NCBI GenBank assembly: GCA_965209055.1
Contig: OZ242374.1
Coordinates: forward strand, 2,880,001 to 2,944,000
Direction of reading: 5' to 3'
Origin: Acidobacteriota bacterium
GTDB taxonomy: Bacteria; Acidobacteriota; UBA6911; RPQK01; JAJDTT01
DNA length: 64,000 nt
This document shows, piece by piece, positions 15,398-26,631 of this stretch. The notes beneath the pieces were generated by a model that saw only the letters and a list, made by a program, of their open reading frames with translations, searched no databases and was not told the origin of the DNA. Both the position numbers and the translations under genes were made by a program. The number at the start of each line of letters is the position of its first letter. The stretch's first letter is position 1.

Positions 15398-16618
15398 ATG
15401 CAAAACTACATTGAGCGTTCTCTGGAACCGGTCCTCAGGAAGGCGTTCTCTCAGTTTCCCGCCGTCGTTCTGACCGGACCGCGCCAGTCCGGCAAGACAA
15501 CGATCCTGCAGAGGCTCTTCGGAGGCCGCTGCCGGTACGTCTCCCTGGAGCCTCCGGACGTTCAGGCGTCCGCGCTGCATGATCCGCGCAGTTTCTTGGA
15601 AACCTGCCGGCCGCCGGCGATTTTCGATGAGGTGCAGTACGTTCCCGGGCTGCTTCCATACATCAAGGAGAAGATCGATGCGAACAGGCATCGGACGGGG
15701 CAGTACCTGCTCACCGGCTCGCAGAACCTGTTGCTCATGGAGAAGGTGACCGAGTCGTTGGCGGGCCGCGCGGCCATGCTTCGGTTGTTGCCTCTCTCCA
15801 GACGTGAAGCCGAAGGACGGCCGCGGCTGCTTCTTCCCTGGGAACGTAGCGGGCACCCGGCTTCAATGCCGGCTTACGCATTTGGAGGACTCTGGAAAAA
15901 CTTTATTCGGGGCGGGTACCCGGAACTCGTGTCCCAGCCTGAAAGGGACGTGTCCCTCTGGCATTCCAGCTATATCCAGACCTATCTCGAGCGGGACGTT
16001 CGCACCCTCCGGCAGGTAGGCGACCTGACCCGGTATCAGAGTTTTGTCCGGGTTCTGGCGGCCAGAAGCGCTCAACTCTTGAACCTGACGGATGTCGCAC
16101 GAGACCTGGGCGTCGCCGTCAATACCGTCAAGGCCTGGCTCTCGGTGCTTGAAGCCAGCTACCAGGTCACGGTGCTGCGCCCCTACTTCGCCAACGTCGG
16201 GAAACGCCTCGTCAAGCGCCCGAAAGTGTATTTCACCGACACGGGGACACTCTGTCACCTCGTGGGTCTCAGGGACCCCGAACACGCCGCCTCGGGTCCC
16301 ATGGGCGGCGCTATCCTGGAGACGGCGGTGTTGTCCGAGATCGTCCGAACGCTGACGCATCGAGGGGTCGAGCCGCGGGTCTACTTTTGGAGGACGATGG
16401 CCGGGACGGAGATCGACTTCGTGATCGAGGCCGGGGGGAAGCTGGTGCCGTTGGAGGTGAAACTGTCCGCCACGCCGCGCCAACCAATGGCACGTGCCAT
16501 CAGTACTTTCCGGAGGGACCTGAAAGAGGCGGCGCGATCGGGATACCTCGTACATCCCGGTGATGTTCGCCTGCCTTTGGGCTCGGACGTGAACACATGC
16601 CCCTTCGCAGACCTGTAA
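15398..16618 (+). CDS. AAA_14 ATPase with DUF4143 domain (HTH plus PD-(D/E)xK-like C-terminus)
   Basis: Walker A GPRQSGKT, Walker B IFDEVQ, LTGSQ, ESLAGR, GGYPE, EIDF...LEVK. Confidence 0.92.
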   Translation: MQNYIERSLEPVLRKAFSQFPAVVLTGPRQSGKTTILQRLFGGRCRYVSLEPPDVQASALHDPRSFLETCRPPAIFDEVQYVPGLLPYIKEKIDANRHRTGQYLLTGSQNLLLMEKVTESLAGRAAMLRLLPLSRREAEGRPRLLLPWERSGHPASMPAYAFGGLWKNFIRGGYPELVSQPERDVSLWHSSYIQTYLERDVRTLRQVGDLTRYQSFVRVLAARSAQLLNLTDVARDLGVAVNTVKAWLSVLEASYQVTVLRPYFANVGKRLVKRPKVYFTDTGTLCHLVGLRDPEHAASGPMGGAILETAVLSEIVRTLTHRGVEPRVYFWRTMAGTEIDFVIEAGGKLVPLEVKLSATPRQPMARAISTFRRDLKEAARSGYLVHPGDVRLPLGSDVNTCPFADL

Positions 16619-20640: not shown

Positions 20641-21951
20641 ATGAATCTGCACCAACTGCTTCAAAGGCGGCTCGAAAGCCGGGGGCCGGTGCGTGCGGGT
20701 CTCATCGGCGCCGGCAAGTTCGGTTCCATGTTCCTGTCCCAAGTGCCGTCGACCCGCGGTCTGGTGGTTCCGGTCATTGCGGATCTCGACCCGGACCGGG
20801 CGCGCCGGACCTGTCTGGCCGCAGGCTGGGACCGGGAGTTGGTGGACCGCACACGCATCGTCCGCGACGGCCTGGAGCTGGCCGCCGCCGATGACGTCGA
20901 TGTGGTGGTGGAAGCCACCGGACAGCCTCTGGCCGGACTCGCCCACGCCCGCAGCGCCATTCGGGCGGGGAAGCACGTCGTCATGGTCAATGTCGAGGCC
21001 GACGTGCTGGCCGGCCTGGAGCTGGCCCGGGAAGCGGCCGCCTCGGGAGTGGTCTATTCCATGGCTTACGGCGACCAGCCGGCTCTGATCTGCGAAATGG
21101 TGGACTGGGCTCGAGCCTGCGGTTTCCGGGTGGCCGCCGCCGGCAAAGGGACCCGGTATCTGCCCTCCTACCACGCGTCGACTCCGGAGACGGTCTGGGA
21201 CCATTACGGAATCACCGCCGAGGCGGCCCGGGCCGCCCGGATGAATCCCCGGATGTTCAATTCGTTCCTGGACGGGACCAAGTCGGCCATCGAGATGGCG
21301 GCGGTGGCCAATGCCACGGGGCTGACTCCGGCTCCCGGCGGGCTGACCTTTCCGCCCTGTGGAGTGGACGAGCTCGCCCAGGCGCTCTGTCCCCGGGAAG
21401 CCGGCGGCCGACTGCACCACCGGGGCCAGGTGGAGGTGGTCTCATCTCTGAACCGGGACGGCAGCGCCGTGGAAAGGGATTTGCGCTGGGGAGTCTACGT
21501 CGTGGTCGAGGCGCCCAACGACTACACCGCCGCTTGCTTCTCGCAATACGGCCTGAGTACCAATGAGTCGGGTGGTTATGCCGCCCACTACAAGCCCTTT
21601 CACCTGATCGGGCTGGAGCTGGGCATCTCCATTCTCTCCGCCGTGTTGCGCGGCGAGGCCACCGGCTGCCCGACCCGTTTCGCGGGGGACGTGGTGGCGA
21701 TAGCCAAGCGGGACCTCCGGCAGGGGGAGGTCCTGGACGGCGAGGGCGGTTACACCGTGTGGGGAAGGCTCATGACCGCCGCCGGCAGCGTAGCGTCGCA
21801 CGGCCTTCCCATCGGACTCGCCCACGGCGTCCGGTTGCGCCGCGATGTTCCGGCGGGCCGGTTCCTGAGCTGGTCCGATGTGGAGATCGATCCGGATCTG
21901 GAGGCAGTGCGGCTGCGCCGGGCCATGGAGCAGACCCTGGCGGAGACTTGA
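20641..21951 (+). CDS. Homoserine-dehydrogenase-like NAD(P) oxidoreductase with C-terminal SAF domain
   Basis: GAGKFG, NVEAD, GDQP, SFLDGTKSAIEM, AKRDL..GEVLDGEGGY. Confidence 0.9.
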   Translation: MNLHQLLQRRLESRGPVRAGLIGAGKFGSMFLSQVPSTRGLVVPVIADLDPDRARRTCLAAGWDRELVDRTRIVRDGLELAAADDVDVVVEATGQPLAGLAHARSAIRAGKHVVMVNVEADVLAGLELAREAAASGVVYSMAYGDQPALICEMVDWARACGFRVAAAGKGTRYLPSYHASTPETVWDHYGITAEAARAARMNPRMFNSFLDGTKSAIEMAAVANATGLTPAPGGLTFPPCGVDELAQALCPREAGGRLHHRGQVEVVSSLNRDGSAVERDLRWGVYVVVEAPNDYTAACFSQYGLSTNESGGYAAHYKPFHLIGLELGISILSAVLRGEATGCPTRFAGDVVAIAKRDLRQGEVLDGEGGYTVWGRLMTAAGSVASHGLPIGLAHGVRLRRDVPAGRFLSWSDVEIDPDLEAVRLRRAMEQTLAET

Positions 21952-21957
21952 GTGGAC

Positions 21958-21979
21958 CGACAACCGATCCTGGTTGTCG
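21958..21979. terminator. Stem-loop after the SAF oxidoreductase gene
   Basis: CGACAACC-GATCCT-GGTTGTCG; no U tract. Confidence 0.3.
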
Positions 21980-22219
21980 TCGCTACGGGATTGGAGTGTT
22001 TACCTTGATCGGCAACACGCATATTCCCGGCTTGATCACGCCGGCTCGATATCGGTGTGTATGAAATCCCCTCCCTACCGGGTACCGGTACAACACCGGC
22101 AATGGGATGACCATGGTCGCCTCCGACAGATTCACGATATTGGGAATTGTCGATAAATGGACAAATAGGAGTAGTATTTTACTATTGATAGTGAAAACGT
22201 CTCTCGGTATCATCACGGA

Positions 22220-22654
22220 ATGCAGATTTCGGAGATCACAGCCGTCATTCGCCGGGAATTGGAACGCCGCGGGACCAACGCCTACCGGGCAGCCGTGGAC
22301 GCGGGGCTGCCCCAGAACGCCATCCGATCGGTCCTCCGCGGCCGGGAACCCGGAAGCGAACGCCTGGCAGAAATCTGCCGGGCGCTGGAACTTGAATTTT
22401 ACGTCGGGCCGCCGAGAGGGCATCGCCAGGAGACGATCCAGGAGGCGGACGGGACCCCGGAATTGCCGGCCGGGGAACCTCAGTGGGTGGAGCGGCTCCA
22501 TGCCGGGTTGCAGGAATTGAAAGCCCAGTTGGCTGTTGCGCACGAGGACATCAAGGCGTTGCGCCGGCAGATCGGGCCGCAACAGGAGCCGCCGCCGGAA
22601 GCGCTGGATTGGCCGGCCGTTGCTGGACACACCGGCTCCCGCTCCACCGATTAG
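22220..22654 (+). CDS. XRE/phage-repressor-like HTH protein with C-terminal coiled coil
   Basis: AYRAAVDAGLPQNAIRSVLRGREPGSERLAEICRALELEF; heptad pattern LHAGLQELKAQLAVAHEDIKALRRQI. Confidence 0.7.
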   Translation: MQISEITAVIRRELERRGTNAYRAAVDAGLPQNAIRSVLRGREPGSERLAEICRALELEFYVGPPRGHRQETIQEADGTPELPAGEPQWVERLHAGLQELKAQLAVAHEDIKALRRQIGPQQEPPPEALDWPAVAGHTGSRSTD

Positions 22655-22674
22655 TTAATAGATTGGGAAATGGA

Positions 22675-23904
22675 ATGACCAACGCCGAACTTGTCAGACG
22701 AATCCGGCTCGGCGAGGACTCGACTCTGGAGTTCAAGCGTGTAGTAGTGGCTGGCGGCCGCGTATCGGAACCGAAGCGCAATCCCATGGCAGACGAGTTG
22801 GCCGCCCTGGCCAACGCCAGAGGCGGCACCGTGGTCCTGGGTGTAGACGACGAAACCCAGGAGATTCTTGGTATTCCGCTCCAGGATCTGGATGCCGTCG
22901 AAGGCTGGGCGCAGGAAATCTGCAATGACTCCGTGAAGCCGGCGCTCAATGCCGATATCCGAAAGTTGGAGTTGCCGGCCCGGAATGGTCAGCTGGTTCC
23001 GGTCGTTCGCCTGGACATTCCCCGTAGCCTGTTCGTACACAAGAGTCCGGGCGGATATTTCCGCCGGATCGGCAGTTCGAAGCGGGAAATGGCTCCGGAG
23101 GTTCTGGCTCGACTCTTTCAGGAACGTAGCCAGACTCGAATGATCCGGTTCGACGAGTCCATTGTGCCGGGGACCGCGACGGGCGATCTGGACTATGCGC
23201 TGACGCGCCGATTCCTTCGGGGAGAACCCGATGAAGACGGCGTCACAGAGACCGCGGCGCGAAAGCTTCGCCTCGTGGCCGACGACGATGAGGGGCGGGC
23301 GCGGATCACGCTCGCCGGTGTCCTGCTGTGCACGCGCGAACCACGAACGTGGTTGCCTCACGCATACGTGCAAGCGGTCAGCTACGCCGGGGAGCGAACC
23401 GACATCGACTATCAGACTGACGCCCGGGATATCGGCGGGTCGCTCGACGTTCAGGTCGCCGAGGCGCTGCATTTCGTGCGCCGGAACATGCTCGTGCGTG
23501 CAAGCAAAGCGACCGCGCGTGTGGATCGTCCGCAGTTCAGCGATCGGGCGGTGTTCGAGGCGTTGGTTAACGCGGTGGCGCACCGGGACTACTCGGTGGC
23601 GGGCGCGCGCGTGCGGCTGCACCTCTTCGGGGATCGCCTTGAACTCCATGTCCCGGGCGCTCTGGCGAACACTCTCACTCCTGACAGCCTGCATTTGCGC
23701 CAAGCCAGCCGGAACGAACTGATCGTCTCACTGCTGGCGCGCTGTCCGGCGCCTACCGGCCTTGGCCGTGTGAATCTAATGGACCGGCGGGGAGACGGCG
23801 TGCCCATCATCATGCAAGAATGCGAGAAGCTGTCCGGTCGCCTCCCGGAGTACAGGCTGATAGACGACAGTGAGCTGCAGCTCGTGATCTGGGCAGCCCC
23901 GTAG
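22675..23904 (+). CDS. Schlafen/AlbA_2 domain plus HATPase_c_4 (RecG C-terminal-like) protein
   Basis: GEDSTLEFKR, ALANARGGTVVLGVDD, EALVNAVAHRDY, PGAL, RN..I, DRRGDG. Confidence 0.9.
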   Translation: MTNAELVRRIRLGEDSTLEFKRVVVAGGRVSEPKRNPMADELAALANARGGTVVLGVDDETQEILGIPLQDLDAVEGWAQEICNDSVKPALNADIRKLELPARNGQLVPVVRLDIPRSLFVHKSPGGYFRRIGSSKREMAPEVLARLFQERSQTRMIRFDESIVPGTATGDLDYALTRRFLRGEPDEDGVTETAARKLRLVADDDEGRARITLAGVLLCTREPRTWLPHAYVQAVSYAGERTDIDYQTDARDIGGSLDVQVAEALHFVRRNMLVRASKATARVDRPQFSDRAVFEALVNAVAHRDYSVAGARVRLHLFGDRLELHVPGALANTLTPDSLHLRQASRNELIVSLLARCPAPTGLGRVNLMDRRGDGVPIIMQECEKLSGRLPEYRLIDDSELQLVIWAAP

Positions 23905-23924
23905 CCGGCTGGACGGGATCCGCT

Positions 23925-24605
23925 ATGCCTGTGAAACGGGTCGTGTGCCTGGCGAACTCTCGGAAGCTGGCGGAACGGTGCGTCGCCGGCCGGGAGTGGA
24001 TCGGGGGTCGCAGAGCCGGCGCCTGGGTTCGACCGGTGAGCGATCGCGAGAGTCAGGGGGTGTCCGAGTACGAGCGGCAGTACGTTGACGGCAGCGATCC
24101 GCAGGTTTTGGACATTATCGATATTCCGGTGCTGGAACATCGCCCGCAGGACCATCAGACTGAGAACTGGTTGCTCGATCCCAAGTGCTACTGGGAGAAA
24201 GCGGGCCGCCTTACGCCGATCGATTTACCAACGTTCGTAGATACTGCTGCCCCACTCTGGGTCGACGGATACAGTACGTTCAAGGGCCGGAACGACAAGA
24301 TCCCGGTCTCGGCGATCGCTCCAGTTACCGATTCGTTACGACTTATCCGTATTGACCGTCTGCAGCTTGTCGTGTGCCGGCCCGGCGAGGCCTTCGGAAA
24401 CAACAAGCGGCGGGTTCAGGGTCGTTTCCGGCACGCGGAGACGCAATACGCGCTCTGGGTCACCGATCCCAGGTACGAGAGAAAGTATCTTTCGAAATTG
24501 GACGGCACCTATGAACTCGGAGAATGCTACATCACGATCAGTCTGGAAGAGCCGTACCAGGACTCCTGCTACAAGCTGGTCGCGACCATTTTCGAGGTTG
24601 ATTGA
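23925..24605 (+). CDS. Dual OB-fold (DuOB-like) protein
   Basis: N-terminal CLANSRK..RCVAG, WVRPVS, HQTENW, VTDP, ISL.EP...CYKLVA, typical of DUF488-associated dual-OB proteins. Confidence 0.75.
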   Translation: MPVKRVVCLANSRKLAERCVAGREWIGGRRAGAWVRPVSDRESQGVSEYERQYVDGSDPQVLDIIDIPVLEHRPQDHQTENWLLDPKCYWEKAGRLTPIDLPTFVDTAAPLWVDGYSTFKGRNDKIPVSAIAPVTDSLRLIRIDRLQLVVCRPGEAFGNNKRRVQGRFRHAETQYALWVTDPRYERKYLSKLDGTYELGECYITISLEEPYQDSCYKLVATIFEVD

Positions 24606-24615
24606 CAGCAGTCCG

Positions 24616-25254
24616 ATGCACCAGATTCACGGCAAGGTCTTCACCATCGGCCATTCCAACCACGAGATCGAGGGCTTCGTCGAGCTATTGCGGCAACACC
24701 GGATAGATGCCCTGGCTGACGTCCGCTCGGCACCGTACAGCCGCTTCAATCCGCAATTCAATCGGGAACCGTTCGCCGCCGCCCTCAAAGAAAAAGGGTT
24801 CCGATACGTATATTTCGGACGAGAGTTGGGCGGCCGGTCCGACAACTTCGAGTGTTACGACGAAGAGGGGCGTATCGTTTTCGATCGAGTCGCCGCAACC
24901 GGGAAGTTCAAACGTGGAATTGCACGCGTCGTTGACGGAGCCGCCAGACACCGCATAGCACTTATGTGCGCGGAGAAAGAGCCGCTCGAATGCCACCGGA
25001 CGCTGCTCGTCGCCTGCAAACTCGACAATCGGAGCGTCGAGGTCGACCACATTCATGCTGACGGCAGCCTGGAGTCGCACGACCAAGCGATGACTCGTCT
25101 GATCAAACTCGTACTTCCGCGTGAGGGCCCTCTGATTCGCCAGACTGAACCTCCCAGGGATGTGATGATCGCCGAGGCCGTTGAACGCCAAGTGAGGCGC
25201 ATTGGCTTCAGGGACAAGAGTCTGGCCGCCACTTTCGCGGAGTCAATGCAATGA
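24616..25254 (+). CDS. DUF488 family protein (long type)
   Basis: TIGHSNH, DVRSAPYSRFNPQFNRE, LGGR, LMCAEKEPLECHRTLL. Confidence 0.9.
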   Translation: MHQIHGKVFTIGHSNHEIEGFVELLRQHRIDALADVRSAPYSRFNPQFNREPFAAALKEKGFRYVYFGRELGGRSDNFECYDEEGRIVFDRVAATGKFKRGIARVVDGAARHRIALMCAEKEPLECHRTLLVACKLDNRSVEVDHIHADGSLESHDQAMTRLIKLVLPREGPLIRQTEPPRDVMIAEAVERQVRRIGFRDKSLAATFAESMQ

Positions 25255-25688
25255 AGTTGTCCACCATCGGATTCACAAGAAAACCCGCCAAGCGTTTCTT
25301 TCACCTGTTGCGCAAGTCGGGTGCCCGGCGGATCGTAGACGTGCGGATCCACAATACCTCCCAACTCGCCGGCTTCGCCAAGAAAAACGACCTGGCCTAC
25401 TTCCTCGGCGAGATTTGCGGGATGGACTAAGTCCATCTGCCCAGCCTCGCCCCCACCAGGGAGCTGTTGGGTGCGTATCGAAAAAAGACCATTCGCTGGG
25501 GCACGTTTGAGAGGCGTTTCATCGCACTGATGCGCCAGCGGCGAATCGAAGCGACGACGCCGAAGGACGTGCTGAGCGACGGTTGCCTCCTGTGCAGCGA
25601 GGACCGACCGCACCATTGCCATCGCCGGCTGGTGGCGGAGTACCTGAACCAACATTGGGGCGGAATCCAGATCGCCCACTTGCGATAG
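25251..25688 (+). pseudogene. Second DUF488 protein (short type), interrupted by an in-frame TAA at 25428-25430
   Basis: MKLSTIGFT...DVRIHNTSQLAGFAKKNDLAYFLGEICGMD*VHLPSLAPT...LLCSEDRPHHCHRRLVAEYL; same frame on both sides of the stop; ATGA overlap with the upstream gene. Confidence 0.88.
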
Positions 25689-25716
25689 CCGGAGGGCGAG
25701 GAATTTCTTCCCCTTC

Positions 25717-26631
25717 TCACGCCGGCTTCGGGCCGGCGGCGCTCCTTCTCAGGTGAAGGCACCAGGTGATGGGGGCCAGAGGCGGAAGATCGGTTCGTCC
25801 TTCCAGATACTTGCGGTGGTGATCCGCCGGCGAGTCGTTGCCGACGATCTCCCAAAGGTCGCGCGGGTTCAGGACGGCGCCCACGCGGGCCGGGTCGAAG
25901 CGCGAAATCATGGGTTCGCCCCGTTTCTCCACGAACGCCATCAGCCGGGAAAAGAGATCGCGGTCTTCCGGCGGCACGCACTCGGCCGCGATCAAATAAT
26001 CGAAGACGATTTCCGACCCCGAACTTGCGATCTCCGCCAACCGATCCAGATTCTCGAGAATGGAGGCCCGGGTGAGGTAGTAGGTGACTCCCATCCAGTT
26101 GAAGAAGGAGCGTGCGCCGAGATCGAAGCCGGCGGCAGTCAGCGCGCTTCGGAGGTCGCCTCTCTCGAAGTCGAAGGGGACCAGACGCAAACGAGCGGGG
26201 ATCTCCAGGTTCGCGGCGGCCAGCCGTTCCACCTTCAGGCGAATCATCTCCGCCCGGTCGACTTCGAATACGGTCAGATCCAGGTCCGGCCGGCGGAAGG
26301 CGAAGGAATCGAAGCCGGAGCCCAGGATCACGTACTGGGTCGCGCCGTTTTCGGCCGCCGTCTCGAGCGTTTCTTCGGCGAACCGGGCGCGGGTCAACTG
26401 CTGGATGCTGATGGGCACCAGTTTGTTCATGACGATCTTCGCCAGCACCCAGTCGAGGAGACGCGACGCGACGATTCGTCGCCACCGGTTTCCCAACAGG
26501 TGGATGGCGAACGGATCTTCGAAGATATGGGGTTTCCGGTGCCGAAGCAGGTGCCGGGCGCGGCTCACCGCCGCGAGTTCGGCGGTGCGGCTGGCGCCGG
26601 TGCGGTCATGTTCGTCGGTTGGTGCGGCCAC
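25717..26631 (-). CDS. Class I SAM-dependent methyltransferase (leucine-carboxyl-MTase-like)
   Basis: ASRTA...R, DPFA, RARF.E, QYVILGSGFDSFAFR, FEVD, WMGVTYYL; GTG start after AAGGA. Confidence 0.88.
   Translation of the reverse strand: MAAPTDEHDRTGASRTAELAAVSRARHLLRHRKPHIFEDPFAIHLLGNRWRRIVASRLLDWVLAKIVMNKLVPISIQQLTRARFAEETLETAAENGATQYVILGSGFDSFAFRRPDLDLTVFEVDRAEMIRLKVERLAAANLEIPARLRLVPFDFERGDLRSALTAAGFDLGARSFFNWMGVTYYLTRASILENLDRLAEIASSGSEIVFDYLIAAECVPPEDRDLFSRLMAFVEKRGEPMISRFDPARVGAVLNPRDLWEIVGNDSPADHHRKYLEGRTDLPPLAPITWCLHLRRSAAGPKPA

Follow-up and report, generated by a model that had tools for sequence, protein, structure and literature searches.

We analysed a 64,000-nt stretch of an Acidobacteriota bacterium genome (GCA_965209055.1, contig OZ242374.1, positions 2,880,001 to 2,944,000 of the forward strand), called the window below, and in it a cassette of five plus-strand reading frames at 22220-25688. 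The cassette consists of a helix-turn-helix (HTH) gene (22220-22654, 144 aa), a Schlafen-GHKL gene, termed Schlatpase (22675-23904, 409 aa), the DuOB gene (23925-24605, 226 aa) and two DUF488 genes, DUF488a (24616-25254, 212 aa) and DUF488b (25251-25688, 145 codons), the last being a pseudogene here, with an in-frame TAA at codon 60 (25428-25430). Genes 3-5 are the phage defence candidate (PDC) PDC-M45 of PADLOC-DB v2, a catalogued prediction, with DuOB as PDC-M45A, DUF488a as PDC-M45B and DUF488b as PDC-M45C. We detected joint movement of Schlatpase and this core, which together occupy about ten sites spread over three or more phyla. Each half was already known; the joining of Schlatpase to PDC-M45 is the new part. 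The genome of the window is labelled G000 and its genus relatives G001-G008; L, P and X label loci, proteins and sequencing runs.

The original prediction, made from the sequence alone, had described five co-directional genes with gaps of 20, 20, 10 and -4 nt, and the reading frames confirmed this. Pfam supported its domain calls (HTH, Schlafen-HATPase, DuOB and twice DUF488, with HTH_3 under the cut-off), and the E-x4-EFK and C-x-E...CHR motifs that it had named are present. PADLOC analysis of the locus corrected its statement that this is not a named system: genes 3-5 match a known candidate, and the Schlatpase pairing is not part of that candidate. Each of the three genes matches its own PADLOC profile best (PDC-M45A 4e-89, B 2.4e-74, C 5.4e-68, the last read with X at the stop), and they are adjacent and co-directional in the order A-B-C. 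The differences from PDC-M45 are that this clade has a fixed Schlafen-GHKL gene before the core and that M45C is broken in the window genome, where the three PDC-M45 genes are not all intact; the window copy is a degenerate PDC-M45 copy. The TAA codon of DUF488b aligns with a Tyr codon in 19/19 relatives and is also found in a contig of run X1 (14.6 kb, depth 15.6, 0 differences over 21900-25900; X1 may be the source sample), so it is a nonsense change of recent date and probably not an assembly error. A contig of X6, a sponge metagenome of another study, covers the whole stretch with 48 differences, and codon 60 is not among the 37 of these that were listed.

According to the available text of Payne et al. 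(10.1101/2024.01.29.577857), the PDC set comprises 145 computationally predicted candidates whose examination is left to later work, and a term search of the main text of that paper found no mention of M45, Schlafen or DUF488. DuOB matches Pfam PF22557 (E 6.5e-69). Its structure model (predicted local distance difference test, pLDDT, 97) matches the OB folds of TEBP, RPA, CST and BRCA2 with middling Z of 6.6-7.0 and a root-mean-square deviation (rmsd) of 2.3-3.9, and CST is the best Foldseek match (E 6.6e-4); on this modelling DuOB is a predicted binder of single-stranded DNA (ssDNA) or DNA ends. Both DUF488 proteins match Pfam DUF488 and carry the C-x-E...CHR motif, which is kept in 24/24 homologues of DUF488a and in 20/20 of the other protein. 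In the DUF488a model (pLDDT 86) C118 closes strand 114-118 and R128 opens helix 127-138. The resulting Cys-Arg spacing is CX9R; in classical protein tyrosine phosphatases it is CX5R. The phosphatase folds matched are the dual-specificity phosphatase domain of laforin (Z 8.3) and KAP (Z 8.1), with rmsd 3.7-4.0 over 130-133 aligned residues; tetrapyrrole methylases match equally well (Z 8.3-8.6). DUF488a is predicted from the model to be a Cys/Arg enzyme of phosphatase-like fold. Burroughs and Aravind in 2023 reportedly placed DUF488/DuOB systems within the rhodanese-phosphatase superfamily and are said to have predicted that DUF488 enzymes process DNA ends in conflict systems. Cys phosphotransfer chemistry of the superfamily is described in the available part of PMC9503650. 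Three DuOB-DUF488 fusion proteins of 405-449 aa (P0036, P0067 and P0109) support a physical link within the core.

Several other searches were negative. NCBIfam gave no matches, sequence search against solved structures gave nothing significant for DuOB or DUF488a, PHROGs gave no family match for these two proteins, and no relative was found in the viral contigs searched with the window's DuOB. DarT was not found among the 98 neighbour proteins scanned, nor in the window's own genome by a search that had no working positive control, with macrodomains not searched genome-wide. No literature on DUF488 and DarT together was found, and among DUF488 papers, judged by title and abstract, none dealt with a PDC-M45-type system; in the part of the PMC13092281 supplement available, DUF488 is named in feature-table rows only.

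Schlatpase contains PF04326 (SLFN_AlbA_2) followed by PF13749 (HATPase_c_4) in one chain and no further Pfam domain. The nuclease motif E14-x4-E19-F-K21 is intact, and each of E14, E19 and K21 is kept in 14/14 linked and 55/56 other rows of the alignment; in the GHKL motif ExxxN, E295 and N299 are invariant in 70/70 rows and, judged by their spacing, would be the equivalents of RzAgo E314/N318. Profile matches were obtained to SLFN8/14/11 and 3lmm, and the PADLOC prokaryotic Argonaute (pAgo) profile matches residues 46-397 (E 2.4e-13). In the available text of 10.64898/2026.05.29.728809, the Schlafen-GHKL architecture is named Schlatpase and is the commonest one, with 58.6% of prokaryotic Schlafen proteins; its module is exchanged among pAgo, NACHT and type I restriction-modification (R-M) partners, and in the SLFN-pAgo system RzAgo it cleaves tRNA after ATP-driven tetramerisation. 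The window protein shares with RzAgo the N-terminal Schlafen-GHKL module and differs from it by having neither the Argonaute PAZ/MID/PIWI core nor a guide; a sensor, if there is one, would be encoded by another gene. With stand-alone Schlatpases, called pSlfn-HisKinase in PMC13056530, it shares PF04326 and PF13749, the Ex4ExK and ExxxN motifs and the lack of an extra domain; the window's protein is joined to DuOB and two DUF488 proteins, the partners described in the available parts of these two sources being pAgo, NACHT and type I R-M. By analogy with SLFN-pAgo, Schlatpase is predicted to be an ATP-switched tRNase. In the part of PMC13056530 available, seven systems of four architectures, including HisKinase fusions, were tested, and protection was confined to the DUF262 and Ig-like fusions. 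'HisKinase' there is presumably the GHKL domain seen here, and the lack of protection by the HisKinase fusions tested alone would fit a need of Schlatpase for a partner.

The pairing was followed by a DuOB scan with one genome per species, which gave 25 loci from close relatives only. Schlatpase lies directly upstream of DuOB in 18/25 of them (14 whole genes and 4 remnants) and in 14/21 loci outside the genus, and all four genes are intact in eight loci (L008, L011-L013, L016, L020, L023 and L024). By their labels the hosts belong to Acidobacteriota, Rhodothermales and Binatia/Thermodesulfobacteriota, and one is unclassified; two of these labels fall in one GTDB phylum, hence the count of at least three phyla. 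The linked cassette occupies about ten sites with differing flanks, which differ even in close hosts (L012 versus L016, L013 versus L024). Co-occurrence of Schlatpase with DuOB and two DUF488 genes is thus supported as exceeding chance, and the chance adjacency that the original prediction had named as its refutation was not borne out. No record of the pairing was found in the literature searched, which did not include Burroughs and Aravind 2023 or the PDC supplementary tables, and the supplement files of PMC13056530 that were searched gave no match. A DUF6615 gene was found directly upstream of linked Schlatpase in two unrelated hosts (L016, 3693-4640; L023, 1840-2685).

The linked Schlatpases form one clade, gained once and kept under purifying selection. 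In a quick tree of 82 rows a single branch (Shimodaira-Hasegawa-like approximate likelihood ratio test, SH-aLRT, 91) separates the 15 full-length linked Schlatpases from the others, and in the DuOB tree a clade of 20 rows (91) corresponds to them, comprising 14 linked loci, 3 with a remnant and 3 without Schlatpase. Pairwise distances of Schlatpase correlate with those of DuOB (rho 0.71, n=14) and DUF488a (rho 0.62, n=12), kin in these sets not being independent. The ratio of nonsynonymous to synonymous substitution rates (dN/dS) is mostly below 0.3: 0.08-0.19 for Schlatpase (9 pairs), 0.12-0.27 for DuOB (8), 0.19-0.31 for DUF488a (8) and 0.08-0.57 for DUF488b (6).

The relatives of linked Schlatpases have another partner. 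A gene for Ppl (PHP-ABC ATPase) stands directly upstream of related Schlatpases in 26/72 loci with at least 300 nt of upstream sequence (L039, L040, L041 and 23 more, one with a doubtful N-terminal match), and 3 of the 5 nearest Schlatpase relatives follow Ppl. The subfamily is shared with the linked loci; what differs is that none of the 17 linked loci tested has Ppl upstream, the partner there being PDC-M45 downstream, and tblastn with two Ppl queries found no match in the window genome. The presence of Ppl before related Schlatpases and its absence before the linked ones tested suggest a partner swap. The trees are quick trees that do not set the direction of the change, and the order, Ppl first and PDC-M45 later, is therefore our inference. 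In the reciprocal test, 580 metagenome relatives of Schlatpase were obtained, and the best 80 (41-75% identity, 61/80 with at least 700 nt downstream) had no DuOB or DUF488 gene nearby; the 72 loci used for the Ppl count belong to these 80.

Several observations weigh against a functional tie between the two halves. Linkage alone yields co-evolving neighbours and distance correlations of this kind, and the distances of Schlatpase and DUF488b are uncorrelated (rho 0.23, n=10, 206 of 2000 permutations). Four phyla were sampled evenly, with DuOB found in 11/401, 14/401, 7/401 and 2/301 genomes (the samples around G427 and G430 share genomes and enter the count a single time), and Schlatpase was within 1.5 kb of DuOB in 0/28 genomes outside the linked clade, a count that omits G000, G001, G004, G282, G427, G428 and G430 and includes a few loci ending at contig ends. 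Six of 22 plasmid DuOB matches were examined and Schlatpase was present in 0/6. The original prediction had proposed Schlafen as the effector; that it is a required one was not supported, PDC-M45 being without it in all of these genomes and plasmid regions. Intact Schlatpase accompanies a broken core in 6/25 loci and in the window (DuOB frameshifted in L028; DUF488a lost in L014, L018 and L022; DUF488b lost in L009, L019 and the window), and an intact core accompanies broken or absent Schlatpase in L010, L017, L021 and L025. The host genomes have between 1 and 10 Schlafen genes apiece, which would make an initial contact by chance easy; the window genome has six Schlafen-domain genes in total, and it has a single copy of each cassette gene apart from two distant Schlafen-GHKL paralogues. 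The only Schlatpase-DuOB 'fusion', P0276 (644 aa), was rejected as a frameshift product, with one member on one contig and the Schlatpase frame left near residue 360 before DuOB. Our literature search found neither a paper naming PDC-M45 nor a report of its defence activity. A four-protein complex prediction with Schlatpase as partner gave a median of 0.01 (runs 0.01, 0.42 and 0.01), which is no verdict and was used neither way.

These points bear on two other explanations. The first is stacked cargo: a Ppl-Schlatpase pair and PDC-M45 entered an Hma-type hotspot, and after the loss of Ppl the halves have travelled together owing only to their 20-40 nt spacing in one transcript, with no functional link. 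The arrangements HmaB-Ppl-Schlatpase in L039 and HmaB-PDC-M45 in L178 agree with it, as do the symmetric decay of the halves, the core standing alone in 28/28 outside genomes, the lack of a real fusion, and the unresolved basal linked locus L023, which precedes a Swt1-HEPN/DUF499 gene among other candidates. It is opposed by the Schlatpase dN/dS of 0.12-0.17 and its unchanged position, both maintained across some ten insertion sites and a dS of about 0.8-0.9, and by the metagenome relatives, none of the 80 (67 of them long enough for the tree) sitting in the linked clade as a stand-alone gene. We regard stacked cargo as possible, on the doubtful side. The second explanation is a toxin-antitoxin pair, in which a constitutively toxic Schlatpase is neutralised by DuOB/DUF488. 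The tight operon and, in the genus, an autoregulator-like HTH would suit it; the losses in both directions argue against it and against an obligate system, since intact Schlatpase remains where DuOB, DUF488a or DUF488b is lost and no partner is always kept, and we consider it very improbable.

PDC-M45 has other neighbours and partners elsewhere. It adjoins CBASS, CRISPR, an Eco57I-type R-M gene and HmaB, and the plasmid DuOB regions adjoin CBASS, CRISPR, SNF2 helicase or DUF4326; the defence-like character proposed in the original prediction was supported. All five long DuOB reading frames checked are helicase fusions, four with RecQ-specific domains, and in L172-L176 a RecQ-type helicase is joined to DuOB at one end or the other and two DUF488 genes are neighbours (L175 is truncated by the end of its contig). 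In a plasmid variant (L036 and L038) DuOB is found with one DUF488 and DUF4326, which replaces the second DUF488. PDC-M45 lies beside a HORMA-type CBASS with HTH/ImmA regulators in L033 (3361-8351), and twice beside DUF5131, in L033 (with TcmP) and in L013 (8086-8940).

The cassette genes have a GC content at third codon positions (GC3) of 0.69-0.78 versus 0.79-0.85 in eight neighbouring genes, and Pfam identified the flanking genes as SAF/DRL oxidoreductase and LCM methyltransferase, in line with the lower GC3 and the metabolic flanks originally described. The ninth neighbour, an AAA_14/DUF4143 gene at 15398-16618, is probably another accessory gene, given its lower GC3 (0.76) amid metabolic genes. 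The SAF-LCM site is shared by 9/9 genus genomes, among which all five genes are intact in G008 only. DUF488b is lost or broken in G004 and G007, as is DuOB in G007, a large deletion affects G001, and G002, G003, G005 and G006 (L138-L141) retain only HTH and DUF488a, both intact. DUF488a is full-length with its motif in 9/9 genus genomes as its partners decay, and the nine form a clade (99); this hints at a stand-alone function, and DUF488a seems to be useful by itself.

The HTH protein has a weak Pfam HTH_3 match (E 2.6e-4, below its cut-off), a match to the repressor family phrog_4583, Atlas HTH_3 cluster matches of 0.90-0.91 and a coiled-coil-like tail. Its gene is present in 8/9 genus genomes and in 0/21 loci of other genera, and it persists in genus genomes where Schlatpase, DuOB and DUF488b are missing. 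Upstream of it there is an operator-like pair of palindromic boxes (22147..22195, no strand assigned; core CTATnnATAG, 31-nt period, distal box partly degenerate in the window), and a plus-strand sigma-70-like promoter match at 22185..22213, which overlaps the proximal box (10/12 consensus positions, by consensus scan only). The paired palindrome is conserved before HTH in seven genus relatives and scores 47.7 at the cassette, where three block shuffles reached 20.9 at most. Five more intergenic pairs were found in the window genome (G000:C1; scores 27.8-53, near 241543, 870263, 1316233, 2613272 and 4113548); one of these five is near a cytochrome c region. The other four lie near what we take to be transporter-like, TauD-like, DUF1501-like and moaD/nfeD-like genes. 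The six sites possibly form a small regulon of the cassette HTH. Being confined to the genus, with the operator pair recurring before unrelated genes, HTH does not belong to the mobile unit as a fifth component; in sequence terms it is an Xre/Cro-C1-type genus-local regulator whose transcript the cassette shares. The PDC-M45 unit in the genus thus sits behind a local HTH promoter, and the five-gene cassette of the original prediction is reduced by one gene.

At recA and two lexA-like genes no operator pair scored above the shuffle range (a score of 7.9 about 230 nt before one lexA-like gene is within it). This bears on a third explanation, that PDC-M45 is a DNA-repair or end-cleaning module and Schlatpase is either a passenger or the link by which unrepaired DNA damage stops growth. 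The DuOB-RecQ fusions and the persistence of intact DUF488a across the genus favour repair; the patchy spread of DuOB across the four phyla samples, its occurrence on plasmids and beside defence systems, and the operator result at recA and the lexA-like genes speak against it, and we think this explanation unlikely.

The explanation we prefer, with a probability of roughly 0.5, is that the window holds a decaying copy of a mobile four-gene defence unit made of a PDC-M45 core and an optional Schlafen-GHKL arm, the core acting on ssDNA or DNA ends and the arm arresting the cell. DuOB would bind ssDNA or DNA ends exposed in phage or plasmid replication, and the Cys/Arg sites of the DUF488 proteins would take off or transfer a phosphate or adduct at the terminus of such ends; the core could work alone. 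Schlatpase, by analogy with SLFN-pAgo, would be a second line, with ATP-driven oligomerisation, tRNA cutting and arrest of the infected cell, and the unit may thus hold a cell-killing arm. Schlatpase probably originated from a Ppl-Schlatpase pair and would now answer to the PDC-M45 DNA-processing step or to its inhibition, a trigger step that is the least certain of these and only tentatively proposed. It is conceivable, at rather low odds, that the three PDC-M45 proteins together sense and process DNA ends or ssDNA and have a slot for exchangeable partners (RecQ in some lineages, Schlafen-GHKL here), and that in this clade they took over from Ppl the triggering of a Schlafen tRNase. In humans, ssDNA activates SLFN11.

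PDC-M45 and DUF488 occur widely, with only predicted functions, and stand-alone Schlafen-GHKL is the largest bacterial Schlafen class, for which a trigger is sought. The natural four-gene unit joins both, and tRNA cleavage would be an easy readout, which would give a role to both if it depended on DuOB and the DUF488 cysteines. The window copy is broken, so intact relatives are better test material. If the arms are independent, the locus would be ordinary stacked defence cargo; if PDC-M45 does trigger the Schlafen tRNase in place of Ppl, PDC-M45 with Schlatpase would be a multi-protein bacterial parallel of SLFN11, and tRNA cleavage would be the first direct readout for DUF488 chemistry.

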